Assembly (NCBI GenBank): GCA_027310565.1
Contig: DAIDAP010000037.1
Coordinates: 256,163-320,162 of the forward strand
Direction: 5' to 3'
Source: Chloroflexota bacterium
Lineage (GTDB): Bacteria; Chloroflexota; Limnocylindria; P2-11E
Length of the DNA: 64,000 bases
Position numbers and translations under genes: made by a program. Shown piece after piece: positions 10,478-26,997 of the stretch (positions are counted from its first letter, which is position 1; every line of letters starts with the position of its first letter). The notes under the pieces are model-generated. The model saw nothing but the letters and a program-made list of their open reading frames with translations, searched no databases and had not been told where the DNA came from.

Positions 10478-11613
10478 CGCGCCTGCGGGCCGCCTGGCGG
10501 GTGGCCTCGATCCCCGTCTACAGCATCCTGCTCGCGCTCCTGGTCGCCGCGGTCGTCATCATCGTCTCCAGCACCTTCACCGCGACCGGCTTCGACCCGC
10601 TGCTCCCGCTCGCGGCGTACCTGCGCCTGCTCATCGGCGCGTTCGGCAGCCCGAGCGGCATCTCGAACACGCTCGTCGCGGCCGCGCCGCTCATGTTCGG
10701 GGGCCTCGCCGTCGGCCTCGGGCTGAAGGCCGGCCTGTTCAACATCGGCGTCGCGGGCCAGTTCCTCGTCGGGGCGTTCGCGTCGGCGGTCGTCGGAGCA
10801 AGCCTCGCGGGGGCACCGATGCTCGTCGGGATGCCCCTCGCGGTGCTCGCGGGCGCCCTCGCCGGCGCCGCCTACGGCTTCATCCCCGGGTTCCTCAAGG
10901 CGCGCACCGGGGCCCACGAGGTCGTGACCACGATCATGCTCAACAACGCCGCGACGCTCCTGCTCACCTGGGCCGTCAACGACCTGGTCCGCGCACCAGG
11001 CTTCACCTTCCCTCGCACCGCGGCCGTCGGAGAGAGCGCCCTCCCGGTGCTCATCGGCCGCAACCTCCACCTCGGCGTGGTGCTCGCGGTCGTCGCGATC
11101 TTCGTCGTGCGGTGGGTCCTCGACCGCACGACCCTCGGCTTCGAGATCCGCACGGTCGGCCTGAACCCCGAGGCCGCGCGGTACGCCGGCATGCGGCCGG
11201 TCTTCATCACCGCGCTCACCATGACGCTCTCGGGTCTTCTCGCCGGGCTCGCCGGATCCATCCAGATGCTCGGGGTCATCGGCTTCTACGCTCCGGGCAT
11301 CACCGCGTCGGTCGGGTTCGACTCGATCGCCGTCGCGCTCCTCGGCCGGTCCGATCCGATCGGCATCCTGTTCGCGGCGCTGCTCTTCGGCGCGTTCCGC
11401 GCCGGGGCGCCGCTCATGCAGATCGAGACGAGCGTGCCGATCGAGGTCATCGACATCATCCAGGCCCTGGTGATCCTCTTCCTGGCGGCCGACCTCATCG
11501 TCCGCAGGCTGTTCCGCGTCCGAGCCGCGAAGCCTGAGATCGCCGAGCTGCAGACCGTCACCAAGACCTGGGGCGGCACCACGCCGAGCACGACGCCGGG
11601 CGGCGGGGACTGA
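10474..11613 (+). CDS. ABC transporter permease (BMP/ribose-type, first of two)
   Basis: Polytopic membrane protein. Start overlaps the ATPase stop. Confidence 0.8.
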   Translation: MTRLRAAWRVASIPVYSILLALLVAAVVIIVSSTFTATGFDPLLPLAAYLRLLIGAFGSPSGISNTLVAAAPLMFGGLAVGLGLKAGLFNIGVAGQFLVGAFASAVVGASLAGAPMLVGMPLAVLAGALAGAAYGFIPGFLKARTGAHEVVTTIMLNNAATLLLTWAVNDLVRAPGFTFPRTAAVGESALPVLIGRNLHLGVVLAVVAIFVVRWVLDRTTLGFEIRTVGLNPEAARYAGMRPVFITALTMTLSGLLAGLAGSIQMLGVIGFYAPGITASVGFDSIAVALLGRSDPIGILFAALLFGAFRAGAPLMQIETSVPIEVIDIIQALVILFLAADLIVRRLFRVRAAKPEIAELQTVTKTWGGTTPSTTPGGGD

Positions 11614-12647
11614 TGGACCTCCTCGCGATCCCCCGCCTCGTCTTCGAGTTCGCGGTGTACCTCCTCACGGTCCTGCCCGACCTGCTGCCGATCATCCTGG
11701 CGCTCGCGACGCCGCTCGCGCTCGGCGCGCTCTGCGGCGTGCTCAACGAGCGCTCCGGGGTCGTCAACATCGGGATCGAGGGCATGATGCTCATGTCCGC
11801 CTTCTTCGGGTACCTCACCGGTTTCGCGCTCCACCAGACCGTCGGCAGCGCGGTCGCGATCTGGCTCGGCATCGCCGTCGCGGTCGGCGTCGGCGCGCTC
11901 CTCGGGCTGCTGCACGCCTGGCTCTCCGTATCGGTGCGCGCCGATCAGATCATCGCGGGGACGATGATGAACATCGCGGCCCTGGGGGTCACCGGCTACC
12001 TCAACCGGCTCATCATCACCCCCTCCGGCCGCGGCGGCGCCGGGGTCATCCCGCCGTTCCGGATCCCGCCGGAGCTCGCCGACCTGCCGGTCGTGGGGCC
12101 GATCCTGGCGATGTTCCTCGACCAGGGGCCCATCGCGATGAGCGTGATCGTGTTCGTGCTGGTCCTCCAGTTCGGGCTGTTCCGGACCCGGTGGGGCCTT
12201 CGGACGCGCGCGGTAGGCGAGCACCCCAAGGCGGCCGACACGCTGGGGATCGACGTCTTCCGCCAGCGCTACCTCAACGTCATCCTCGGCGGCGCGCTCG
12301 CCGGGCTCGCCGGCGCGTTCCTCACGCTGGAGTCCACCGGCTCGTTCCAGAACGGGATGACCGGCGGCCGTGGCTTCATCGCGCTCGCGGCGATGATCTT
12401 CGGCCGCTGGACGCCGGTGGGCTCCTTCCTCGGGGCGCTCCTCTTCGGGACGGCGACGGCTTTCGGCGTCGTCGTGAGCGTGCGGCCGGCCGAGGGCGAC
12501 CTGGGCGTGATCTTGCGCTCGATCCCGACGTTCTGGTATGCCGCGCTGCCGTACCTGCTCACCGTGGTCATCCTCGCCGGGGTGGTCGGCCGCTCGGTCC
12601 CGCCGGCCGCCGACGGCGTCCCCTACGCGAAGGAGGGCAAAGCCTAA
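11613..12647 (+). CDS. ABC transporter permease (second of two)
   Basis: Polytopic membrane protein, paralogous to the preceding gene; ATGA-type coupling. Confidence 0.8.
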   Translation: MDLLAIPRLVFEFAVYLLTVLPDLLPIILALATPLALGALCGVLNERSGVVNIGIEGMMLMSAFFGYLTGFALHQTVGSAVAIWLGIAVAVGVGALLGLLHAWLSVSVRADQIIAGTMMNIAALGVTGYLNRLIITPSGRGGAGVIPPFRIPPELADLPVVGPILAMFLDQGPIAMSVIVFVLVLQFGLFRTRWGLRTRAVGEHPKAADTLGIDVFRQRYLNVILGGALAGLAGAFLTLESTGSFQNGMTGGRGFIALAAMIFGRWTPVGSFLGALLFGTATAFGVVVSVRPAEGDLGVILRSIPTFWYAALPYLLTVVILAGVVGRSVPPAADGVPYAKEGKA

Positions 12648-16222: not shown

Positions 16223-16944
16223 GAGCAGGAGGCACTGGGGCCACGATCGAGCCGATCCGGCGCAGCAAGCTCTACCAGGGCATCGTCGAGCAGATCGAGG
16301 CACTCCTCGAGAAGGGCGAGCTCAGGCCAGGCGATCAGCTCCCGGCGGAGCGAACGCTGGCCGAGCAGCTCCAGGTCTCGCGTGCCTCGGTGCGGGAGGC
16401 GTTGCGCACCCTCGAGCTCCTGGGCGTCGTCGAGACGCGCGCGGGTGGCGGCACGTTCGTGCGCCGCGTGGCGCCGGACGACCTCATGCGCCCGCTCACG
16501 AGCCTCATCGCCCGCGGGCACTCGATCCCCGACGTCATCGAGTTCCGCGGGATCGTCGAGCCGGCGATCGCCGCGCTCGCCGCGAGGCGCATCGACGTCG
16601 CGCAGCTCGCGGAGCTGCGCGACCTCCTCGCCGCCCAGGCGCGCAAGGTCGACCAGAGCCAGCCGTACGTCGACGAGGACACCCGCTTCCACGAGGTCAT
16701 CGGCGAAGCCGCGGGCAACGAGCTGCTCACCACGATGCTCGGCGTGATCTGGGACGTCCTGCGCGCGTCGCGCGAGCAGTGGCTGCAGACGCATAGCCGC
16801 GCGCAGGCGTCGCTCGAGGCGCATCGCCGCATCTACGACGCTCTCGCGCGGCACGACGCCGAGGCCGCGCGGGCCGCGAGCGCCGAGCACATCCGCGCGG
16901 TCGGCGAAGGGATCCTGAAGCTGTTGGGAGGTCGGAATGGCTGA
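16216..16944 (+). CDS. GntR-family transcriptional regulator, FadR subfamily (N-terminal wHTH plus C-terminal FCD domain)
   Basis: wHTH ...LPAERTLAEQLQVSRASVREALRTLELLG is encoded upstream of the annotated 16390 GTG in the same open frame. FCD-type C-terminal domain. No canonical ATG/GTG/TTG exists between the in-frame stop at 16189 and the HTH, so the true start is unresolved (CTG 16216, ATC 16246, or a frameshift). Confidence 0.7.
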   Translation: MTRAGGTGATIEPIRRSKLYQGIVEQIEALLEKGELRPGDQLPAERTLAEQLQVSRASVREALRTLELLGVVETRAGGGTFVRRVAPDDLMRPLTSLIARGHSIPDVIEFRGIVEPAIAALAARRIDVAQLAELRDLLAAQARKVDQSQPYVDEDTRFHEVIGEAAGNELLTTMLGVIWDVLRASREQWLQTHSRAQASLEAHRRIYDALARHDAEAARAASAEHIRAVGEGILKLLGGRNG

Positions 16945-18040
16945 CGAGAAGTCGATCTCGGTGGAGGTCGTCTACCGGGGCATCTTCCAGAAGACGCTGG
17001 CGCAGCGCATCTGCCGCTCGATCGTCCTCGCGTCGCGCAAGAAAGGGCACACCGGCACCGCGTTCTCCCGCTACGGTGACTCGCCGGAGCGCAACGGCGT
17101 CCCGGCGAAGCAGTTCGCGATCGTCGCGGTCGACGAGATCGAGCTGGAGGCGTCGATGGCGAAGTACGAGCCGGCCGTCGTCGATATCTCGGTCGCCGTC
17201 GACGACACGCTCGTGAAGGGCGTCGAGTCGTGGGCCTGGTACGGACGGCAGCCCATCTGGAAGCCGATCCGCGAGGGCGGGACCCTGCTCGTCACGAGCG
17301 AGAAGACCCCGGGCGAGATCGTCGCGCAGTCCGACCGGACGCCGAAGCCCTACACGCTCGGGATCGTGCCCGGCGGCGCGTCGTTCGCCGGCCTGTGGGT
17401 TTACAAGGACGACCACACCGATTACCGCGTCCTGGGCGCGCTCGCGAAGGTCGCGCCGCGGTGGCTCCCGCTCGAGGCGGCGAAGCAGGCCGCCCTCGAC
17501 CTCGCGAAGGGCGACCGGTCGGCGGCGGCCTCCGTGCAGTACGGCTACGACGCGACCGTCCTGCGCCAGGTCGGGGCCGGTGAGGGCACCGACGGCCACG
17601 AGAAGCTCCAGTTCACCAAGCCCGGCTGGACGACCATGCGGCCGGGCATCGTCGTCGACGCGCGCAAGCCCGGCCAGCGCAATCCCCAGTACAAGAAGTA
17701 CACGGCCCGCACGCAGCGGCCGGTCGTGAACTTCGACACGTGCATCAAGTGCACGATGTGCTGGCTGGACTGCCCCGACGAGTGTTTCGAGGTGACGCCC
17801 GAGGGCCACTACGAGGTCGTCTACGAGGCGTGCATCGGCTGCGGCATCTGCGCGCAGGTCTGCCCCGTGAAGGACTGCATCGTCATGGTCGACGAGCTCA
17901 AGTTCGCCGACAACCGGGACAGGTGGCAGGACTGGAAGAAGGATCGCGGCGCGTACAACACGTGGTTCGAGAAGGTGAGCGGCGTCCCGGCCGACCCCAA
18001 GGCGGCCGCGCCGGCGTCAGCGGCGGGAGGTGATGACTAG
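16937..18040 (+). CDS. 2-oxoacid:ferredoxin oxidoreductase, fused gamma-delta subunit (PorG/PorD-like)
   Basis: N-terminal gamma-subunit fold plus a C-terminal 2x[4Fe-4S] ferredoxin (CIKCTMCWLDCP and CIGCGICAQVCP). The start overlaps the regulator stop by 8 nt. Confidence 0.8.
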   Translation: MADEKSISVEVVYRGIFQKTLAQRICRSIVLASRKKGHTGTAFSRYGDSPERNGVPAKQFAIVAVDEIELEASMAKYEPAVVDISVAVDDTLVKGVESWAWYGRQPIWKPIREGGTLLVTSEKTPGEIVAQSDRTPKPYTLGIVPGGASFAGLWVYKDDHTDYRVLGALAKVAPRWLPLEAAKQAALDLAKGDRSAAASVQYGYDATVLRQVGAGEGTDGHEKLQFTKPGWTTMRPGIVVDARKPGQRNPQYKKYTARTQRPVVNFDTCIKCTMCWLDCPDECFEVTPEGHYEVVYEACIGCGICAQVCPVKDCIVMVDELKFADNRDRWQDWKKDRGAYNTWFEKVSGVPADPKAAAPASAAGGDD

Positions 18041-19273
18041 ATGGTCGTCGACGTCAAGACCAGGGAGACCAGCGAGGTCGAGACCGAGCAGCTCGCGACG
18101 GGCTGCGAGGCGATCGCCGAGGCCATCCGCCTCGCCGACGTCGATGTCATGGCCGCGTACCCCATCCGCCCCTACGACGGCGTCATGCAGGCGGCCGCGA
18201 AGCTCATCGCGAACGGCAAGATGGACGTCGAGTACATCGTCGCCGACGGCGAGCACAGCCAGTTCGAGATCGTGAAGCACGCGTGCGCGGTCGGGTCGCG
18301 CGTGTTCGTCGGCTCCTCCGGCGTCGGCTGGTTCTACGCGTTCGAGGCGATCGCGGTGACCGCGGGCCTCCGCCTGCCGGTCGTCGCGATCTGCGGCAAC
18401 CGCGCGCTCGACGACCCGGGCGCCTTCGGGACCGAGCACAACGACTCGCTCGCGGTGCGCGACCTCGGCTGGCTGCTGCCCTGGGCCGAGACGGCGCAGG
18501 AAGCGCTCGACCTCGCGCTCATGGCCTGGCGCGTCGGCGAGGACAGGCGCGTCAGCCTCCCGGTCGCGATCGGGCTGGACGGCGCGTTCCTCACGCACTC
18601 GCAGCACATCGTGAAGATCCCGACCCAGGCCGCGGTGCAGCGGTTCCTGCCGAAGTTCGACCTCGGCGACCGCCTGCTCCACCCGGACAACCCGATCACG
18701 ATCGCCCCGCAGGTCGACCAGGACTGGCTCATGGAGATCCGCCGCCAGAACGACCACGCGATGCGGCAGGCGCTCGGCGTCATCCGCGAGGCGCACGCCG
18801 ACTTCAAGACGATCTTCGGCCGCGGCGGCGACAGCCCGTTCCTCGACGAGTTCATGACCGAGGACGCCGAGGTCGTCGTCATCGGCCAGGGCACGCTCTC
18901 GCTCCCGATGAAGGTCGCCATCCGCCGTCTGCGCAAGGAGGGCCACAAGGTCGGCCTCGTCCGCCTCAAGTGGTTCCGCCCGTTCCCGACGGAGGAGGTC
19001 GTCCGGAGCCTCGGCCGATTCAAGGCCATCGGCGTCGTCGACCGCGACTACTCGTTCGGATCGCCGTTCTACGGCGGCGTCCTCTACAACGAGATCCGCT
19101 CCGCGCTGTACTCGCAGGCATCGCGCCCGGCCATCGTCGGCTTCATCGCCGGCCTGGGCGGCCGCGAGATCGAGCAGCCCATGGCGACCGAGATCTTCGA
19201 GAAGACCGAAGCCGCCGCCCGGACCGGACTCCCCGCCGGGGACGTCTGCCACTGGATCGGCGTACGCGAGTAA
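18041..19273 (+). CDS. 2-oxoacid:ferredoxin oxidoreductase alpha subunit
   Basis: PorA/VorA-like sequence throughout; ATG one nt after the upstream stop. Confidence 0.85.
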   Translation: MVVDVKTRETSEVETEQLATGCEAIAEAIRLADVDVMAAYPIRPYDGVMQAAAKLIANGKMDVEYIVADGEHSQFEIVKHACAVGSRVFVGSSGVGWFYAFEAIAVTAGLRLPVVAICGNRALDDPGAFGTEHNDSLAVRDLGWLLPWAETAQEALDLALMAWRVGEDRRVSLPVAIGLDGAFLTHSQHIVKIPTQAAVQRFLPKFDLGDRLLHPDNPITIAPQVDQDWLMEIRRQNDHAMRQALGVIREAHADFKTIFGRGGDSPFLDEFMTEDAEVVVIGQGTLSLPMKVAIRRLRKEGHKVGLVRLKWFRPFPTEEVVRSLGRFKAIGVVDRDYSFGSPFYGGVLYNEIRSALYSQASRPAIVGFIAGLGGREIEQPMATEIFEKTEAAARTGLPAGDVCHWIGVRE

Positions 19274-19284
19274 GGAGGGACGAC

Positions 19285-20331
19285 GTGGCAATCGACACCG
19301 CACTCCCCCAGATCAAAGGCGTCAAGGACGTCCCGTACGAGGAGCTCTTCGTGTCGGGGCACCGCACCTGCCAGGGCTGCGAGTCAGCCCTCGTGATGCG
19401 GCACATGGTGAAGGCCTCGGGGCCGCGCACGATCGTGCTCGGCTCGACCGGCTGCATGTACGTCGCGAACACCACGTATTACACGACCCCCTGGGTGGTC
19501 CCGTGGATGCACACGCAGCTCGGCGCGTCGGGCTCGGCCGCGCTGGGCACAGCCGCCGGCCTCAAGGTGCTCATGCGCAAGGGCAAGCTGAAGAACGAGA
19601 AGATCAACGTCATCGCCTTCTGCGGCGACGGCGGCGGCGCCGACATGGGCCTCGGCGCCATCTCCGCGACGCTCACGCACAAGGAGTACGACTGCCTCGT
19701 GCTCCTGTATGACAACGAGTCGTACGCGAACACGGACATCCAGCTCTCGAGCATGACGCCGTACGGCGCGGTCACCACGTTCTCGCCGTCCGGTGAGAAG
19801 AAGCGGCTCATGCATACGCGCTGGAAGAAGAACGTCCCGGGCATGCTCGCCGCGGGCCACCCCGAGTCGCGCTACATCGCGGCCGGCTGTGCCGCGTACG
19901 CCGTGGATCTCATGAACAAGATCCGCAGGGCTCTCGAGCTCGGCGGGCCCACCTTCGTCCACACCCTCGACCCGTGCCCGAAGGGCTGGGACTACCACCC
20001 GCAATACAGCCAGGAGCTCGGGCACCTCGCGGTCGAGTGCGGTATCTGGCCGCTCTACGAGGTCGTGGACGGCGTCTGCAACCTCACCGGCCCGACCCGG
20101 CAGATCGCCGAGGGCCGCAAGAAGCGCAAGCCGGTCATCGAGTACCTGCGCCGGCAGGGCCGCTTCGCGCACTTCGTCGACGAGGACGTGGAGCACTTCC
20201 AGGCCGAGGTCGACAAGATGTGGACCGACTGGCTCATCCCCGGCGTCATCCCCTTCACCGTCCCGGCGAAGGACCAGGCGCTCCTCAAGATCGACAGGAA
20301 GCCGCTGCACGAGCAGACCAAGAGCGCGTAG
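19285..20331 (+). CDS. 2-oxoacid:ferredoxin oxidoreductase beta subunit (TPP-binding)
   Basis: TPP-binding motif GDGGGADMGLG and Cys ligands (CQGC...C) of the proximal cluster. GTG at 19285 follows the RBS AAGGAGGG. Confidence 0.85.
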   Translation: MAIDTALPQIKGVKDVPYEELFVSGHRTCQGCESALVMRHMVKASGPRTIVLGSTGCMYVANTTYYTTPWVVPWMHTQLGASGSAALGTAAGLKVLMRKGKLKNEKINVIAFCGDGGGADMGLGAISATLTHKEYDCLVLLYDNESYANTDIQLSSMTPYGAVTTFSPSGEKKRLMHTRWKKNVPGMLAAGHPESRYIAAGCAAYAVDLMNKIRRALELGGPTFVHTLDPCPKGWDYHPQYSQELGHLAVECGIWPLYEVVDGVCNLTGPTRQIAEGRKKRKPVIEYLRRQGRFAHFVDEDVEHFQAEVDKMWTDWLIPGVIPFTVPAKDQALLKIDRKPLHEQTKSA

Positions 20332-20351
20332 GTCGCACGAAGCTGACCCGA

Positions 20352-20382
20352 GGGCCGGCCGCAACATGCGGCCGGCCCTCGT
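20352..20382. terminator. Bidirectional GC-rich hairpin between convergent oxidoreductase beta and collagen-like genes
   Basis: GAGGGCCGGCCGC-aacat-GCGGCCGGCCCTC, a perfect 13-bp stem. Confidence 0.55.
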
Positions 20383-20387
20383 CATCT

Positions 20388-21752
20388 CTACGGAGTGATA
20401 ACGATCGGGGACAACGACGTACCCGTCACCGCGGGCGTGAGCGTATCGGTGACGGTCACGGTGTGCGTCCCTGTCGTGAGGAACGTAACGACGAAGTCAT
20501 GCACTCCCGCGTCCAACCCCGTGAACGTGTAGTCGGCAGGCAAGGTCGCCACTGGATCCGAGCTCGTGAAGCGCACCGTGCCGCGGTAGTCGGTCACCAC
20601 GTTGCCGAACACGTCACGGACAAGCACGTTCAGACCAAGGGGCACGCCCCGGGCACCGCCGCTGCCGATAACCCTGAAGGCGGAAGCCGGACCGCTAGTC
20701 ACGGTGATCGTGTCCGAGGTCCCCGTGACCGCCGCATCGAACGTGTCAGTCGCGATGATCGTGCCCGGGCCAGCGCGCGAGATGCCGAACGCACTCGTGA
20801 AGGTGTGCCTACCGCCGTCGGCGGCGGTGAACGTGTAGTAGGGCGGCACAAAGCCATAGGGGCTCGAGAGGGTGAAGCCGATCGTGCCGCGGTAGTCGCT
20901 CACCGCGTTGCCGAGGCTGTCCAGCGCGGTCACCGTCACGCTGAACCTTTCGCCCGCTGCGACCGTGCTCGGGCTCGCGACCACGCTGAGGCTCGCCGGG
21001 CCCACGGTGATCGAGGCGGCGCCCGAGATGGAGGCATCCAGAACGTCCGTGGCGGAGACCGTCTGCGCGCCTACCGAAACGAGCGTCACGCCGTTCGGCG
21101 GAGCGAAGGTATGCGTGCCGGCGTCTTGCGGGGTGAATGTGTAATCGTGAGGAAGCGTCGCGCCCGGGTCGGTGCTCGTGAAACGGATCCTGCCGCGGTA
21201 CAGGTCCGCGACGTTTCCGAACTGGTCTAGCACGGTGACTGTCACAGTCGTCGCTACGCCTGATCTTGATGCATCCACGACGACCCTGAATCCGAAAGCG
21301 GCCGACGTCGCCGTACCGCTCGGACCGGTCGGTCCGGTTGCGCCGGTGGGACCCGTTGCTCCCGGAGCGCCGGTTGGACCGGTGGGGCCAGTCAGGCCGG
21401 CGGCTCCGGTTGGACCAGTCGCGCCGGCGGCGCCGGTGGGACCGGTCGATCCGGCGGCGCCGGTCGCACCCGTCGCGCCGGTGTCACCCTTTTGCCCGAC
21501 CTGATTCCACGTGATCGCCCGCTCGTTCTTGCCGCACTCCTCGGCCGAGGCGACCAGGCGCAGCTGGCCACTGCGCCCGCCGTCGTCCTTCGGCTTGGCT
21601 GAGCTGTCCTTCTCGTTCTGCTGGACCTGGAAGCATGCGGTGATGACGCCGCCCGGGCCGGGGATCGTGCCGGCGGCGAAGACGCCGCCCGCACCTCCCA
21701 GGACGAAGGCGATGACCCCCACCAGCAGGTAGTGCGCGAACGGATTGCGCAT
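20388..21752 (-). CDS. Secreted/membrane-anchored collagen-like (Gly-X-Thr triple-helix repeat) protein with three Ig-like repeat domains
   Basis: ATG at 21752 ([13 protein letters not shown]...) is preceded by GGGAGGGAG. It has an N-terminal TM/signal, 19 uninterrupted G-X-Y triplets ([13 protein letters not shown]...GPSG), then three ~95-aa repeats ([23 protein letters not shown]...). The first 138 codons of the 592-aa ORF are an artefact. Confidence 0.75.
21300..21480. repeat. Tandem 9-bp (GGNCCGGTN)n repeats encoding the collagen-like Gly-X-Thr tract
   Basis: Direct reading of near-identical 9-mers across ~170 bp. Confidence 0.8.
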
Positions 21753-21807
21753 GCGTTCTCCCTCCCACCCCGACGACTCGACAGGCCCCCGCCGGCGCGC
21801 CCGCGCG

Positions 21808-21950
21808 ATGCTACGCCAGACGCCGTACGGCGCGGTCACGACGTTCCCTCCGTCAGGCGAGAAGCGCCGGCTCAGGGCGCTCGAGCAGGGCGGGCCCACC
21901 AGTACCTGCGCCGGCAGGGCCGCTTCGCACACTTCATCGACGCGGCACAT
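21808..21950 (+). pseudogene. Degenerate, internally deleted partial copy of the 3' part of the oxidoreductase beta gene
   Basis: Three blocks match the beta gene at 19757-19808, 19925-19952 and 20139-20180 at about 85-90% identity, concatenated with the intervening ~120- and ~185-bp segments missing. There is no intact reading frame. Confidence 0.7.
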
Positions 21951-22215
21951 CCGCCTCGCCGCACTCGAATGAGAACGCGCCGGACTCCAGGTCGGCGAGG
22001 AAGACGTCCAGCGCCCGTGCCTTGAGACGGCCCTCGACGAGGTAGCCGATCTCCGCGAGCGTCCAGGCGGGGACGAGATACGGCCCTGCGTCTTCCACGA
22101 ACACCCTCCGCACGCGCTCGTGGTCCGGATCCCGGCGGTCCAGCAGCGCGAGTACCGCGCTCGCATCGAGCCTGATCAGGTGCGGCGCCGCCGGCGCGAC
22201 CAGCGCCGATCCCAC
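21934..22215 (-). pseudogene. C-terminally truncated PIN-domain (VapC-like) toxin gene
   Basis: [52 protein letters not shown]...[18 protein letters not shown] fits the first about two-thirds of a PIN domain (conserved D, E, D positions). The frame terminates exactly where it runs into the oxidoreductase-beta ghost fragment. The upstream partner is a possible decayed RHH/VapB-like ORF (...RLIREALTQYLAG...). Confidence 0.45.
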
Positions 22216-22625
22216 TCTCGGCGCAGCCACTTCTCTGAGCTCGCACCCGTGACCTTCCCATCCGCCGCGATCCCGACGGACCGCGGCAGCACCCGCGGAC
22301 GGCCCGCCAGGTACTGCGTGAGCGCCTCCCTGATGAGCCGGGTGCCGCGGTCCCGGCATCGGCCGCTCCGGGCTCCGCAGGCAGCGCCATGACACGAAGG
22401 CCGCGAGCGCGATGGCCGAGGCCGGCGTCCTGGGGACGCCCGCGAGCCACCCGAGGGAAACGCTTGAACGGCGCAGACGTCGCGACGACGTAGCCGGTGA
22501 GGATGCCCAGACTCATCTGCGTGGCGAACTCGAGGAGCACCCAGAAGCCTTGGCCCTCGGGCATCAACCGGGGCGGATCGCCGCGCCACACCGACCGTCG
22601 CGCCGCGAGGAGGACGCGCCCGCTC

Positions 22626-23210
22626 TTAGGAGCCCGTCTCCGGACGCGGCGCCTGCTGCGGTGCCGCGCCGTGGGGCGGCGTCGCCGGAGGGTTCGCGGC
22701 AGCCGCGGGCGCCGGCGGCGCCCCGTACGGGCGCGCCGGGCGGAACTCGCCGGCCGGCCGGAACGGCGGACGCTCCGGCTTCGGCGGCGGGGGCCCGCCG
22801 GCCATCGCGCGCGCCTGCGGTGACATGAGCGAGCGGACGTGCTCCGCGGTGTAGGGCAGCAGCGCCATGAACCGCGCCCGCTTCAGCGCGCTCGTGAGCA
22901 TGCGCTGGTGCTTCGCGCAGGTGCCGCTCTTGCGGCGCGGATCGATCTTGCCGCGATCGCTGATGTAGCGGCGGATGCGCCCGACGTCCTTGTAGTCGAT
23001 GCGCTGCACCTTGTCGACGCAGAACGAGCAGGCGCGCCTTCGCGGGCGACGGCCGCCGGGGCCGCCGCGCTCGCCACGGTCGCCGTAGGAGGGGCGCGCG
23101 CCGTAGGTGCGCGGACCGCGCGCGGCTCCCCCGCCAGGCGCCGGTCGCGCGGCGCCGGCCGGCGCGCCGGGCGGCTCCGGGGTCGTGCTCTGGGGTGTCT
23201 CGGACGTCAT
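22626..23210 (-). CDS. rpsR: 30S ribosomal protein S18 with long N- and C-terminal low-complexity extensions
   Basis: Core [60 protein letters not shown]. It is flanked by a ~60-aa Gly/Pro/Arg-rich N-extension and a ~65-aa Pro/Ala-rich C-tail. Confidence 0.8.
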
Positions 23211-23225
23211 CGCTCTCTCTCCTAC

Positions 23226-23654
23226 CTAGAACGGGATCTCGTCGGGGTCGAACCCCTTGTCGCCCGGGGCGCGCTCGGGGCGAGGCGCCCCGCCGGCGCC
23301 CATGCCCTCCTCGCGGTCGCGCCGCGAGTCGAGGACCTGGAAGTCGTTCGCGTTGATGTCGAGGCTGGTGCGCTCGCGGCCCTCCTTGTCGGTCCAGGTG
23401 CGCGGCGTGAAGCGGCCGTCCACGAACACGAGCCGGCCGCGCTGCACGATCTGCTGCGCTCGCTCGGCGAGGTTGCCCCAGCACGAGATGCGGTACCAGT
23501 CGGTCTGCTCCTGTCGCTCGCCGCTGTCGCTGCGGCCGCTGATGCGGTTCACCGCGACGCTGAACTCGCACACCGGGCGACCGTTGGAGGTCATCTTGAG
23601 CTCCGGGTCGCGCCCGACGTTGCCGACGATCATGATCTTGCTGAATGAGGCCAT
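23226..23654 (-). CDS. ssb: Single-stranded DNA-binding protein
   Basis: OB-fold SSB sequence with the acidic C-terminal tip DEIPF. Confidence 0.9.
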   Translation of the reverse strand: MASFSKIMIVGNVGRDPELKMTSNGRPVCEFSVAVNRISGRSDSGERQEQTDWYRISCWGNLAERAQQIVQRGRLVFVDGRFTPRTWTDKEGRERTSLDINANDFQVLDSRRDREEGMGAGGAPRPERAPGDKGFDPDEIPF

Positions 23655-23656
23655 CG

Positions 23657-23944
23657 CTATTCGTCCCTTCGCACCACGAGGTGGCGCAGGATGTCTTCGG
23701 TCAGCGAGATGGTGCGCTCGAGCTCGCGCGCCTGCTCGGGCGGGAGCGAGAACTCGAGGACGGCGTACTGACCGTCACGGTGGTGCGCGACCTCGTACGC
23801 GAGTCGCCGGCGCGTCGCCGGCGTGGCCTTGTCGATCTTGCCGCCGAGACCGGTGACGGCGGACTGAAGGCGCTCGCTCACGGCGGTCATGCGCTCTTCG
23901 TCCACGGTCGGGGGCATGAGGTACATGAGCTCGTAGGGCCGCAT
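23657..23944 (-). CDS. rpsF: 30S ribosomal protein S6
   Basis: S6 family sequence (MRPYELMYLM...). Start at M7 of the listed ORF. Order rpsF-ssb-rpsR is conserved. Confidence 0.85.
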   Translation of the reverse strand: MRPYELMYLMPPTVDEERMTAVSERLQSAVTGLGGKIDKATPATRRRLAYEVAHHRDGQYAVLEFSLPPEQARELERTISLTEDILRHLVVRRDE

Positions 23945-24099
23945 CGACACGTTCCTTTCCATGGGTTTGCCGCGGGCACGGGACCCGGGGCGAAAAGGCG
24001 CCGCGGATCGGGTCCGCGGCGGTCCGTTCCAGTGTACGCGACGCGGACGCGGATGACGCCACGATGGGACGATCGGCCGCGGCTTGCGGGAGCGTCCCG

Positions 24100-24333
24100 A
24101 TGACCCTGCGCCGGGACGCCACGGCCGACTGCCCCGAGTGCCACCTGCCGATGTTCCCGGTCGCCGCCGAGGCGACGACGGTCACGCTCGAGTGCGCCAA
24201 CCGCCACCGAACGGCCGCGGCGATGCCGGCCGACGCGGCGCTGCGCCGCCTCGTGCGCGGCTGGGTCTCGCGCAGGGGCGCGCAGCTCCACGTCCAGCAC
24301 GAGCGATGGGAGGACGACGCGGACGACGGCTGA
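24100..24333 (+). CDS. Hypothetical small zinc-ribbon-like protein
   Basis: Paired Cys/His motifs CPECH...CANRH. There is no family assignment; it is an intergenic ORF between rpsF and the MFS gene. Confidence 0.25.
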   Translation: MTLRRDATADCPECHLPMFPVAAEATTVTLECANRHRTAAAMPADAALRRLVRGWVSRRGAQLHVQHERWEDDADDG

Positions 24334-24338
24334 AGCGC

Positions 24339-25532
24339 TCACGCCCGGTCGGACGGTCCCGCCCCGGGCCGCGTGCCGCGCCAGAGCGCCAGCGCCGCGA
24401 CGACGAGCGCGGCGTCCACCGTCCAGAAGCCCGCGTCGTAGGAGCCGGTCCGGTCGTAGACGGCGCCGAGCCCGACCGGCGCGGCGGCCCAGGCGACCGT
24501 GATGAGGGACCCGAGCACCCCCTGGATGCTGGCGAACCGCCGCGGGCCGTACAGGCGGGCGACCGCGGTGCCGCGGATGAGCGTGTCCATCCCGCGGCCG
24601 GCGCCGAAGAGGACGACGAAGACGAGCGCTCCGGCCGTGCCGGGCACGAGGAGGAGCAGCGCGAGCGCCACGGGCTGCGTCGCGTAGACGAGCGCGACCG
24701 CGGTGTGCGGCGCGACGCGGCGCTCGAGCGGCCCGAGCAGGAGGCGGCCCCCCACCTGCATCGCGCCGACGAGACCGGCGAGCCATGCCGCGGTGGCGAG
24801 GTCGAAGCCCCGCCCGCCGAGGTACGGGACGAGGTTGACCTGGATCCCGAGCGTGAGCGCGTAGCAGACGAACCCGAGCGCGAGCCAGCGGAAGGACGGC
24901 TGGCGGACCGCCTCGCCGAGCGAGAGGCTCGGCTCGTGCTGGTGCGTCTCGCGCGGCGCGGCGCGCAGGAGGAGCGCGTGCGGCAGGACGGTGGCGAGGC
25001 CGAGGATCGCCGCGAGGGCCACGAGCGTGTCGCGCCAGCCGAGCCGCGACACGAGGAGCGCGGTGAGCGGGAGGAAGATCGTCGAGGCGAGCCCGGCCAT
25101 GAGCGTCACCACGGTGAGCGCCTCGGTCCGGCGCTCGCGGAAGTGCGCGATCACCGTCGCGAACGCCGGGCCGTAGAGCGTCGCCGACCAGGTGGCGCCG
25201 ATCGCGATCCAGATCGCGTAGTACGCCGCGAGGTCGCGCACGCCGGACCACGCCAGGACCAGCCCGACGCCGGCGATCGACCCCGCGGTCATGAGCAGCC
25301 GCGGGCCGCGACGGTCGAGCCACTGCCCCACCGCGACGCCGGAGACGCCGAGCATGAGGAGCGCGACCGAGAACGCGCCCGTGATCTCGGCGCGCGACCA
25401 GCCCAGCTCCGCCTCCGTCGGCTCGACGAGCACCCCGAACGCGTAGTAGAGGACGCCCCACGACACCGTCTCGGTGAAGCCGAGCGTGAGCACGAGCCGC
25501 CAGCGGTACGGGATCCGGCGCACGATGCCGAG
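24339..25532 (-). CDS. MFS transporter
   Basis: 12-TM MFS topology. Start set at GTG 25532 (VLGIVRR...) because the longer ORF runs across tRNA-Leu. Confidence 0.7.
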   Translation of the reverse strand, partial: LGIVRRIPYRWRLVLTLGFTETVSWGVLYYAFGVLVEPTEAELGWSRAEITGAFSVALLMLGVSGVAVGQWLDRRGPRLLMTAGSIAGVGLVLAWSGVRDLAAYYAIWIAIGATWSATLYGPAFATVIAHFRERRTEALTVVTLMAGLASTIFLPLTALLVSRLGWRDTLVALAAILGLATVLPHALLLRAAPRETHQHEPSLSLGEAVRQPSFRWLALGFVCYALTLGIQVNLVPYLGGRGFDLATAAWLAGLVGAMQVGGRLLLGPLERRVAPHTAVALVYATQPVALALLLLVPGTAGALVFVVLFGAGRGMDTLIRGTAVARLYGPRRFASIQGVLGSLITVAWAAAPVGLGAVYDRTGSYDAGFWTVDAALVVAALALWRGTRPGAGPSDRA

Positions 25533-25557
25533 GACGCTATCCGGTCGGTCGGCCCGG

Positions 25558-25642
25558 TGCCGGAGGAGGGAGTCGAACCCCCAGGTGGGCGTGAGCCCGA
25601 CCGATCTTAAGTCGGCAGCGTCTTCCGTTCCGCCACTCCGGC
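25558..25642 (-). tRNA. tRNA-Leu (anticodon UAA)
   Basis: Minus-strand sequence GCCGGAGUGGCGGAACGG...CGACUUAAGAUCGG...long variable arm...GGUUCGACUCCCUCCUCCGGCA. 7-bp acceptor stem, anticodon loop CUUAAGA, type-II variable arm. CCA is not encoded. Confidence 0.8.
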
Positions 25643-25737
25643 GCTGGGTCGATTCTAGAGACGGCGCCTCGGAGAACCCGGGGCACGGAGCGGTGCCATC
25701 GGCCAGACTACGGGCGAACAGCGACAAGGAGCAGGTC

Positions 25738-26997
25738 GTGATCTCCCACCCCACCCGGTTCGTGATCATCGGCAACGGCGCCGCCGGCACCTACGCGGCC
25801 GAGCAGCTGCGCAAGGACGACACGGCCTGCGAGATCGTCATGATCGACGACGAGAAGTACACGCTCTACAACCGCGTCTCCCTCCCCCGCTACCTCAAGG
25901 GCGTCCTCCTGGAGCAGCGCGTCTACGTGCGCGACATGGACTGGCACACGAAGAACCGCATCGACCTGCGGCTCGAGACGAAGGTCACGCGCGTGAGCTT
26001 CGAGGAGAAGACGGTCACGACCGACCCCGGCGGCGAGCTGCGCTACGACCGCCTGCTCATCGCGACCGGCGGCCGCCCGAACCCGCTGCGCGTCACCGGC
26101 GCCGAGGGCGCGCGGTACCTCTTCAACTTCCAGTACTTCGACGAGACGAAGGCGATGGTCGCGCGCATTCCCGAGTCGAAGGTCGCGGTGGTCATGGGCG
26201 GGTCGTTCATCGGGTACGAGCTCACCGAGGCGTTCGCGTTCCGCAAGCTCGAGACGCACTGGATCCAGCGCGGCCCCTGGTTCCTCCGCCGTGCGCTCGA
26301 CGAGCCGGGCGGCCGTGTCGTGTCACTCCTCGCGCAGGACGCCGGCGTGCACCTCCACTACGACGAGACGATCGAGCGGATCGAGCAGGCCGACGGACGG
26401 CTCAGGGTGCACGGCTCGAAGGGCTTCCGCGCGACGGCCGACCTCGTCGGGGTCGGGCTCGGCCTCACGATGAACATCGACGTCTTCAAGGGCACCGCCC
26501 TCGAGACGAAGGTGGGCATCGTCACGAACGAGTTCCTCGAGACGAGCGTCCCCGACGTGTGGGCCGCCGGTGACGTCGCGGAGTTCTACGACCTCGTCTC
26601 GCAGCGCCACCACCGCATGGGCACCTGGGACAACGCGCTCAACCACGGGCGGCACGTCGCGAAGAACATGCTCGGCGCGAAGCAGCCGTACGTGGAGGTG
26701 CCGACGTACGCCTCCGGCATGTTCAACTCGAACATCTCGGTCATGGGTGTCACGACCGAGGAGGAGCCCGATGCCGAGTCGCTCTTCGAGGTCGACGAGG
26801 AGGGCCGCAACTACAAGCGGCTCTTCTTCCTCGGCGACCGCCTCGTCGGCGCGATCCTCATCGGGAAGATGAGGGGCCGCAAGAAGGTCCTCGAGCTGAT
26901 CTCGTCGCGCACGCCCATCGCGGAGCGGGCGAAGGTGTTCGAGCTGCTCGCGATGCCGGAGGTCACCGCCCGGCCGGCACCGTCGCACGAAGGCTAG
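25738..26997 (+). CDS. FAD-dependent pyridine nucleotide-disulfide oxidoreductase (rubredoxin/ferredoxin reductase-like)
   Basis: Dinucleotide folds VIIGNGAAGTYAAEQL and VAVVMGGSFIGYELTEAF, plus AAGDVAEF. GTG 25738 follows the RBS AGGAGCAGG; the upstream part of the 507-aa ORF overlaps the tRNA. Confidence 0.75.
   Translation: MISHPTRFVIIGNGAAGTYAAEQLRKDDTACEIVMIDDEKYTLYNRVSLPRYLKGVLLEQRVYVRDMDWHTKNRIDLRLETKVTRVSFEEKTVTTDPGGELRYDRLLIATGGRPNPLRVTGAEGARYLFNFQYFDETKAMVARIPESKVAVVMGGSFIGYELTEAFAFRKLETHWIQRGPWFLRRALDEPGGRVVSLLAQDAGVHLHYDETIERIEQADGRLRVHGSKGFRATADLVGVGLGLTMNIDVFKGTALETKVGIVTNEFLETSVPDVWAAGDVAEFYDLVSQRHHRMGTWDNALNHGRHVAKNMLGAKQPYVEVPTYASGMFNSNISVMGVTTEEEPDAESLFEVDEEGRNYKRLFFLGDRLVGAILIGKMRGRKKVLELISSRTPIAERAKVFELLAMPEVTARPAPSHEG

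Follow-up and report, generated by a model that had tools for sequence, protein, structure and literature searches.

A decayed partial copy of an oxidoreductase beta gene records a probable homology-anchored insertion between two convergent operons of a Chloroflexota bacterium

A 64,000-nt stretch of a Chloroflexota genome (GenBank assembly GCA_027310565.1, contig DAIDAP010000037.1, positions 256,163–320,162 of the forward strand; hereafter the window) holds two copies of part of the same gene. The first is the intact beta-subunit gene of a 2-oxoacid:ferredoxin oxidoreductase; the second, which we call the ghost, is confirmed as a pseudogene fragment of that gene, truncated at its 5′ end and internally deleted. 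Between the two lies a single gene for a collagen-like protein (Col), and beyond the ghost follow the remains of a vapBC toxin–antitoxin pair, such that the beta gene and the ghost are read on the plus strand, and Col, the truncated vapC and the truncated vapB on the minus strand, converging on the beta copy to their left. We consider it likely that the ghost is the non-functional relic of a homology-anchored duplicative insertion between convergent operons, followed by deletional decay.

The ghost was delimited by a BLASTN search with positions 21700–22100 against the whole window, which returned three plus-strand, non-self matches, each of them to the beta gene: 21901–21942 equals 20141–20182 at 95.2% identity (67.6 bits, E = 1e-13), 21819–21874 equals 19755–19810 at 85.7% (60.2 bits, E = 2e-11) and 21873–21900 equals 19926–19953 at 89.3% (36.2 bits, E = 3e-4). 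The next best match anywhere in the window scored 32.5 bits. Although the third match is weak when taken alone, it is collinear with the other two and exactly abuts them, and the same three block pairs were found independently by a repeat search of the window. Ungapped inspection, together with a comparison with 54 related beta genes, widened the match to 21815–21945; no further decayed beta or alpha blocks were found to the left of 21815, and no second beta paralog that could have served as source is present in the window. With no spacer between the blocks, the offset between ghost and beta gene steps from 2064 to 1947 to 1760, which implies an in-frame internal deletion of 117 nt and a frameshifting one of 187 nt, with junctions at about 21873/21874 and 21900/21901. 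The remaining 130 nt have no start, no stop and no intact reading frame. An earlier note on this DNA, made by eye from the sequence, had described three copied blocks of the beta gene within 21808–21950, separated by losses of some 120 and 185 bp; at identities of 86–95% and with the deletion lengths given above, this description is borne out.

Could the resemblance be a coincidence in a genome of ~70% GC, or an artefact of assembly at a place where two contigs from the Joint Genome Institute (JGI; L001 and L003 in our numbering of loci) both end, at 21883 inside the ghost? The E-values of 1e-13 and 2e-11 against the whole window, with nothing comparable elsewhere, and the collinear, abutting order of the blocks refute low-complexity, GC-rich similarity, and the ghost follows the beta gene in codon states peculiar to the lineage (see below). 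Moreover, both junctions are matched at 100% identity by two Logan assemblies that come from separate runs (L002, spanning 19974–26256, and L085, spanning 21224–22918), hence the structure is no assembly chimera. The probability that we attach to chance or artefact is accordingly negligible. Short-read assemblers tend to break contigs inside repeats, and the ghost, which includes an exact run of 28 nt, is of a length and similarity that can break up de Bruijn assemblies of the population; the Logan contig L002 itself starts at 19974, within the intact beta gene.

What lay next to the beta gene before it was duplicated? Two related loci suggest an answer. In L086 (GCA_009772625.1), the beta gene is followed after 80 bp by an intact, convergent vapC (145 amino acids) and vapB, and in L088 after 54 bp by the same pair, with a vapC of 150 amino acids; beyond vapB, L088 continues with genes for small secreted proteins, a membrane-protein gene and rpsR-ssb-rpsF. 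Neither locus contains Col or a ghost. Both were reached through a protein-homolog search for full-length VapC and subsequent contig look-ups. Of two further loci that encode close VapC homologs, L092 has no adjacent beta gene, and the contig of L093, whose upstream part resembles L088, ends at the vapC stop.

Against this background, the vapC of the window can be seen to break off where the ghost begins. As the earlier note had observed, the minus-strand PIN/VapC frame stops on entering the ghost: its stop codon (21934–21936) lies inside it, and homology to relatives persists up to codon 21940–21942, after which the window copy reads Arg and then stop, at a point where the homologs, 131–150 amino acids in full length, continue with "IRELV..." for about 50 residues. 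The relic is 72% identical to residues 3–93 of the L086 VapC (tblastn) and matches only positions 3–64 of the 120 positions of the Pfam PIN profile; it retains the first conserved acidic residues and has lost the C-terminal ~50 residues, where the other catalytic Asp residues are located. The junction of ghost and vapC is sharp, with an overlap of 3–6 nt between the two homologies. Compared with L086, the fusion lacks ~388 nt: 149 nt from the 3′ end of the beta copy, the spacer of ~80 nt between the two genes and 160 nt from the 3′ end of vapC. In public collections (NCBI, Logan), the truncated PIN relic is called as a protein-coding gene of 98 amino acids (P0001).

The neighbouring genes have fared no better. 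The ribbon-helix-helix (RHH) or VapB-like open reading frame (ORF) that had been noted as decayed is indeed recognisable only over residues ~17–80: VapB of L086, L088, L092 and L093 matches it at 66–73% identity (E = 1e-27 to 5e-31, tblastn), and comparison of the frames shows that it has lost its start codon together with the N-terminal beta-strand region. On its own the relic gave no Pfam match, with RHH_1 being annotated for its homologs in L089 and L092. The vapBC pair of the window thus has neither a complete PIN domain nor an intact upstream RHH gene, the two marks by which a VapBC type II toxin–antitoxin module would be recognised. The claim that the remaining ~450 bp hold no convincing gene did not survive closer inspection: a minus-strand segment of 38 codons, located in the ~230 nt of seemingly non-coding DNA between the vapB relic and rpsR, encodes a piece of a short-chain fatty acid transporter of the AtoE/TIGR00366 type, matching positions 51–88 of 453 of Pfam SCFA_trans (E = 2e-5) and, over the same residues, positions 48–85 of 438 of TIGR00366 (E = 6e-6). 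Both matches fall below the family cut-offs, owing to the shortness of the piece. No homologs of this relic were found in the related loci examined or in a word-indexed protein search, and its identity rests on the two profile matches.

The complementary arrangement, in which Col rather than vapC adjoins the beta gene, also survives in relatives. In L017, an ortholog of Col (45% identity) lies directly and convergently after the beta gene, and in L090/L091 an ortholog with 50% identity over 98% coverage does so and fills the entire gap between beta gene and rpsR, with 218 bp between the minus-strand Col and the minus-strand rpsR in L090. The synteny comparison therefore recovered both orders that are combined in the window: vapC-type in L086 and L088, and Col-type in L017 and L090. 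Taken together, the locus displays the hallmarks of a duplicative insertion, with an intact upstream copy, a 5′-truncated downstream copy, relatives that represent the empty site (L086, L088) and relatives of donor type (L017, L090/L091).

How might such a structure have arisen? In the history that we favour, an ancestor would have carried the beta gene with a convergent vapC-vapB within ~50–80 bp. Incoming DNA from a related member of the Limnocylindria, ~2,064 bp in length, would have comprised at least the last 580 nt of a beta gene, the terminator and the convergent Col; the offset of the first ghost block, 2,064 nt, is made up of the beta 3′ part, the terminator, Col and 62 nt. Homology within the beta gene could have let this fragment integrate, either after circularisation, by one Campbell-type crossover, or through homology-facilitated illegitimate recombination. 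The outcome would be a regenerated intact beta gene followed by Col, and a 5′-truncated second copy of the beta 3′ part, pushed beyond the cargo and still joined to vapC. Being unselected, this copy would then have decayed through deletions of 117, 187 and ~388 nt and through point substitutions, the ~388-nt deletion fusing the ghost to the middle of vapC and killing the toxin; vapB would have lost its 5′ end.

Sequence comparison of the two copies provides some hints at the age and source of the ghost. Across 128 aligned ghost sites, we compared the ghost with the beta gene of the window and with the majority state of 56 relatives. All three agree at 102 sites; 11 carry derived states common to the ghost and the window gene, including a CGC (Arg) codon found in only 3–6 of the 56 relatives; nine changes are confined to the ghost; and at the remaining six the beta gene alone has changed, the ghost keeping the majority state. 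In two of the latter cases the ghost keeps Gln (CAG), as do 52 of 54 relatives, where the window gene has Met. The shared derived states point to an origin of the ghost from the same or a very close lineage. Two ghost-only substitutions, at 21847 and 21887, hit first and second codon positions at which none of the 53–54 relatives aligned there varies, indicative of relaxed selection on the ghost. Judged by these patterns, the duplication is old enough for both copies to have changed since.

The same comparison bears on a reverse course of events, in which a genome resembling L090 acquired, between Col and rpsR, a block from a vapC-type relative that comprised a partial beta 3′ part, vapC and vapB, and perhaps also the transporter fragment. 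The block could, for instance, have entered with rpsR as the anchor of recombination and an illegitimate join at its left end, and the ghost would then be a piece of the donor's beta gene that came along with it. The compact order of L090 would provide a suitable recipient, the direct adjacency of vapC and beta gene in L086 and L088 means that a donor fragment could start inside the beta gene, and the six sites at which the ghost has the majority, non-window state are as one would expect of a donor sequence. Yet this course requires an illegitimate left join that a simple single crossover cannot yield; a circle recombining within the beta gene would place vapC beside the functional gene, which is not seen; vapB stands beside the transporter relic and rpsR in no relative; and the 11 derived states that unite the ghost with the window's own beta gene argue against a separate donor. 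On balance we hold the reverse transfer to be unlikely.

Those shared, lineage-specific states would also be accounted for if the duplication had been purely internal, that is, if a ~2-kb segment of the beta 3′ part plus Col had been duplicated in tandem and a large deletion had then removed the second Col, all of the second beta copy but the ghost, and the 3′ end of vapC. In bacteria, tandem duplications that later decay by deletion are common. For this, however, Col must already have been located between the beta gene and vapC, and no trace of a second Col copy is found. Furthermore, the agreement of the ghost–vapC join with the arrangement in L086 and L088, which a simple ~388-nt deletion fits exactly, would become a coincidence. 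Tandem duplication with deletion is therefore less parsimonious than a homology-anchored insertion, and in our view quite improbable.

Several observations weigh against the homology-anchored insertion of Col as well. Neither a donor nor an intermediate that combines Col, a complete ghost and an intact vapC was found among the loci examined, and one metagenome scan gave nothing useful. The GC content of Col (0.65–0.73) is like that of its neighbours, with no compositional anomaly; this comparison neither supports nor refutes a foreign origin. At ~85–88%, the identity of the ghost to the beta gene of the window is no higher than that to the genes of L005, L007 and L055, and with the ghost equidistant from several lineages, foreign and native origin of either copy are not separable. 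The identities of the alpha and beta genes to relatives amount to 87–93% in all four segments compared, within noise, with no detectable mosaic breakpoint near position −581. Finally, alignments of the regions upstream of Col between the window, L017 and L090 scored within the range of shuffled sequences, leaving the left junction undefined. The earlier note had proposed that an old insertion or duplication delivered Col and destroyed a vapBC module before deletional decay set in. Of this proposal, the duplication, the loss of vapBC and the decay stand; Col as the incoming gene is not established, given that the reverse transfer produces the same structure. Save for the identity of the incomer, that interpretation is supported overall and essentially correct.

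Is the beta gene a recurrent target? A self-comparison of every locus revealed that three other lineages (L009, L041 and L044) each harbour a duplicate of the last 82–132 nt of their own beta gene, 0.5–3.4 kb downstream of it. These duplicates are closest to the gene of their own genome, end at the stop codon and are followed by a hairpin. The cargo between the copies consists of a LuxR-type regulator or its 3′ fragment (L009, L044) or of a cyclase/ATPase-type regulator (L041). L009 and L044 share their cargo type, for which either independent events or concerted evolution would be needed as explanation. Left ends of the duplicates lie at −80, −104 and −125 in these lineages and at −581 in the window, and the right ends fall where the conserved coding sequence stops; variable left ends combined with right ends at the coding end are expected of recombination anchored in a conserved gene, not of a fixed attachment site.

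This last point matters because direct repeats of a gene's 3′ end around a cargo are the classic signature of integrative elements. Under such a reading the beta 3′ end would have been attB, the ghost and the real 3′ end would represent attR and attL, and the integrase would since have been lost; the recurrence of duplications at the same gene in three further lineages is what one would expect of a preferred site. Contradicting this, the cargo in the window is Col alone, in which Pfam detects no recombinase domain, and the ORF translations of the other three cargoes show regulator-type proteins and no recombinase-like ORF, although no profile scan was made of them. The left ends differ between lineages, the right ends match nothing other than the end of coding homology, and the repeats are long and diverged, with no short identical core. 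A site-specific integrative element is, to our mind, extremely unlikely.

Col, the sole cargo gene in the window, has the make-up of a bacterial collagen-like surface protein: a hydrophobic N-terminal anchor, a tract of ~20 G-X-Y triplets that scores above the Pfam threshold, and non-collagen domains in the form of four immunoglobulin (Ig)-like repeats. At the nucleotide level, 9-nt repeats and three 306-nt units were found, the latter consistent with the four Ig-like repeats of the translation. The protein is identical on independent contigs, and a strong Shine-Dalgarno sequence, GGGAGGGAG, precedes the gene at ~21757–21767. SclA and SclB as well as Lcl match Col partially, over the collagen tract only; membership of the Scl family was considered and rejected, given the lack of an LPXTG motif. 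Proteins that combine the anchor, the collagen tract and all four Ig-like repeats are rare: the protein searches and the loci covered yielded just two more full-length orthologs, L017 and P0030, both encoded directly after the same oxidoreductase beta gene, and every other match was limited to either the collagen tract or the Ig-like repeats. A metagenome scan with the Col protein returned one unrelated Ig-repeat locus (L084) and no closer relatives. The earlier note was right to place Col between the true end of the beta gene, whose stop codon occupies 20329–20331, and the ghost (Table 1).

The position of the ghost, 63–193 nt upstream of the Col start codon, invites the thought that it might be a functional element, located in the 5′ leader or promoter region of Col and antisense to the beta-subunit mRNA. 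All genes from rpsF to Col are co-directional on the minus strand, and a transcript across the ghost would offer ~126 nt with ~88% complementarity to the beta mRNA. The ghost is nonetheless absent from the Col-bearing loci L017 and L090, a promoter and terminator scan of the region gave no promoter-like site, Rfam returned no family match, and the pattern of substitutions and deletions in the ghost looks neutral; a regulatory function of this kind strikes us as hardly credible. Very improbable, even when taken together, are a dedicated cargo capture at the end of the beta gene, which the recurrent 3′-end duplicates beside different cargo in four lineages might mark—for instance by a recombinase acting in trans on integrase-less modules—and a role of the ghost as an antisense regulator that couples the expression of Col and the oxidoreductase. 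If true, either would replace the picture of passive, homology-driven scars.

Table 1. Features of the locus in window coordinates, and of related loci in the coordinates of their own sequences
Feature	Position	Strand	Remarks
Gamma/delta subunit gene	16937-18040	+	2-oxoacid:ferredoxin oxidoreductase operon
Alpha subunit gene	18041-19273	+	same operon
Beta gene	19285-20331	+	intact; PorB/oxalate-oxidoreductase-beta type; parent sequence of the ghost
GC-rich hairpin	20350-20381		13-bp stem, GAGGGCCGGCCGC-aacat-GCGGCCGGCCCTC; between convergent beta gene and Col; read from the sequence
Col	20388-21752	-	collagen-like gene, 454 amino acids; Pfam Collagen 33.6 bits (cut-off 27.2)
Ghost	21815-21945	+	5′-truncated, internally deleted beta gene copy; beta positions -581 to -147 before the stop
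Ghost block 1	21815-21874	+	beta 19751-19810
Ghost block 2	21873-21900	+	beta 19926-19953
Ghost block 3	21901-21945	+	beta 20141-20185
Ghost/vapC fusion junction	21940-21945		beta homology ends at 21942-21945; vapC homology (-) begins at 21940
Truncated vapC (PIN) relic	21934-22230	-	homology to full-length VapC over 21940-22221
vapB (RHH antitoxin) relic	22185-22385	-	residues ~17-80 kept
Short-chain fatty acid transporter relic	22442-22555	-	AtoE/TIGR00366 type; 38 residues
rpsR	22626-23210	-	Pfam Ribosomal_S18
ssb	23226-23654	-	Pfam SSB; called gene on L002
rpsF	23657-23962	-	Pfam S6; called gene on L002
Beta 3′-end duplicate, L009	12105-12186		84-88% identity across the three duplicates
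Beta 3′-end duplicate, L041	14422-14528		as above
Beta 3′-end duplicate, L044	4938-5064		as above
Col ortholog, L017	1801-3273
Col ortholog, L090	427-1884

On the left, the locus is bordered by the oxidoreductase operon, in which the Pfam domains POR_N, PFOR_II, TPP_enzyme_C and Fer4 were found. The beta gene matches TPP_enzyme_C (E = 3e-13) and, among NCBIfam models, OxalOxredbeta best (E = 2e-104), followed by PorB (E = 1e-81); an exact look-up of its protein gave no record. The GC-rich hairpin behind it is likely to act as a bidirectional terminator. L017 has the same stem in the space between its beta gene and its Col ortholog; a terminator scan based on T-runs did not call the hairpin of the window. 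On the right, the border is formed by the conserved operon rpsR-ssb-rpsF. The ribosomal protein S18 of the window is 194 amino acids long, of which only residues 68–118 constitute the Pfam S18 core, and carries long Pro/Ala/Gly-rich N- and C-terminal extensions that are strongly variable among relatives.

To place this neighbourhood in context, one genome per species was scanned, which yielded the beta gene on ~54 contigs at 87–96% amino-acid identity, most of them metagenome-assembled genomes (MAGs) labelled Candidatus Limnocylindria or Chloroflexota. In ~40 of the ~54 loci the oxidoreductase operon converges on rpsR-ssb-rpsF, as it does in the window. The gap between beta gene and rpsR ranges from 0.2 to 8.5 kb among these ~40 loci, and its content differs widely, which marks it as a hotspot of gene turnover. 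Most commonly it holds a lipoprotein gene and two membrane-protein genes, none of which occurs in the window; other contents are metH or metF (L004, L017) and large LuxR-type regulators (L021, L056, L009). In L005, which is among the closest relatives, the beta gene is directly followed by an ORF of 444 amino acids (11256–12590) that, as judged from its translation, encodes a DDE-type transposase resembling those of insertion sequences. A search of the 54 GTDB Limnocylindria loci for vapC, vapB or the transporter relic yielded none of them. Some of the sequences appear to be of mixed provenance: L004 and L034, two different copies of the whole beta-to-rpsR locus, belong to the same MAG (DASSPF01), and beta genes of the Limnocylindria type (92–96% identity) occur in bins assigned to other phyla, namely L028 (Saccharimonadales) and L049 (Actinomycetota). 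These cases probably reflect mixed populations or mis-binned contigs.

The locus offers a natural example of gene gain in an uncultured and little-studied class, Candidatus Limnocylindria of the Chloroflexota, with each of the two parental gene orders still found in relatives and a diagnostic partial duplicate kept in the recombinant. It illustrates a hotspot of gene exchange in the space between two conserved, convergent operons, the ability of a conserved housekeeping gene to anchor recombination, and the removal of unselected remnants chiefly by deletion. In practical terms, three or four relics—the beta ghost, vapC, vapB and the transporter fragment—should be annotated as pseudogenes.

With respect to known systems, the closest parallel is Campbell-type insertion-duplication, as documented for the single-crossover integration of circular molecules in Escherichia coli conjugation, which left duplications of 109–950 bp of the lacZ end (PMC3240628). 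Just as in the window, the cargo comes to lie between two direct partial copies of the anchor gene, of which the upstream one is intact and the downstream one is 5′-truncated and joined to the native flank. The duplications reported here, 82–581 nt, fall within or near the experimental range. The two cases differ in that one was observed in an experiment and the other is reconstructed from natural genomes, with a cargo that would derive from the chromosome of a relative instead of a plasmid, and in that the duplicate in the window has since lost ~70% of its length by three deletions.

A second parallel is homology-facilitated illegitimate recombination (de Vries & Wackernagel 2002 and Prudhomme et al. 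2002, both as cited in PMC5361080 and PMC3240628), and with it the C-terminal displacement arrays of Rhs, contact-dependent inhibition (CDI) and type VI secretion system (T6SS) effectors. For T6SS and Rhs loci, a displacement resembling this type of recombination has been proposed that leaves orphan 3′ ends behind (PMC5361080). Here, too, a conserved gene serves as the anchor, a new 3′ end is brought in along with one or more adjacent genes, the former 3′ end is displaced downstream along with its partner gene, both as orphans, and the process recurs at one locus across lineages. Unlike in those arrays, the anchor in the window is a housekeeping metabolic gene without a polymorphic 3′ end, and the displaced piece is no functional alternative and forms no array. 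Also, homology-facilitated illegitimate recombination classically deletes recipient DNA, whereas the window shows a duplication.

The attL and attR repeats of integrative elements resemble the window in so far as direct repeats of a gene's 3′ end bracket acquired DNA; they differ from it in their association with an integrase, in having boundaries that do not vary by lineage and in the short identical core that the long, diverged repeats of the window lack. As to the fate of the leftovers, bacterial pseudogenes reportedly decay with a deletional bias, as Mira, Ochman and Moran are said to have described in 2001. The window follows this pattern without substantive difference and in textbook-like fashion, with several internal deletions, frameshifts and substitutions at conserved sites in the ghost, and with vapC, vapB and transporter relics that have decayed alike. 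Seen next to these systems, the scar in the window is ordinary genome evolution, unusually well documented, and no new kind of system, with the recurrent duplication of the anchor gene in this class as its sole mildly unusual aspect.

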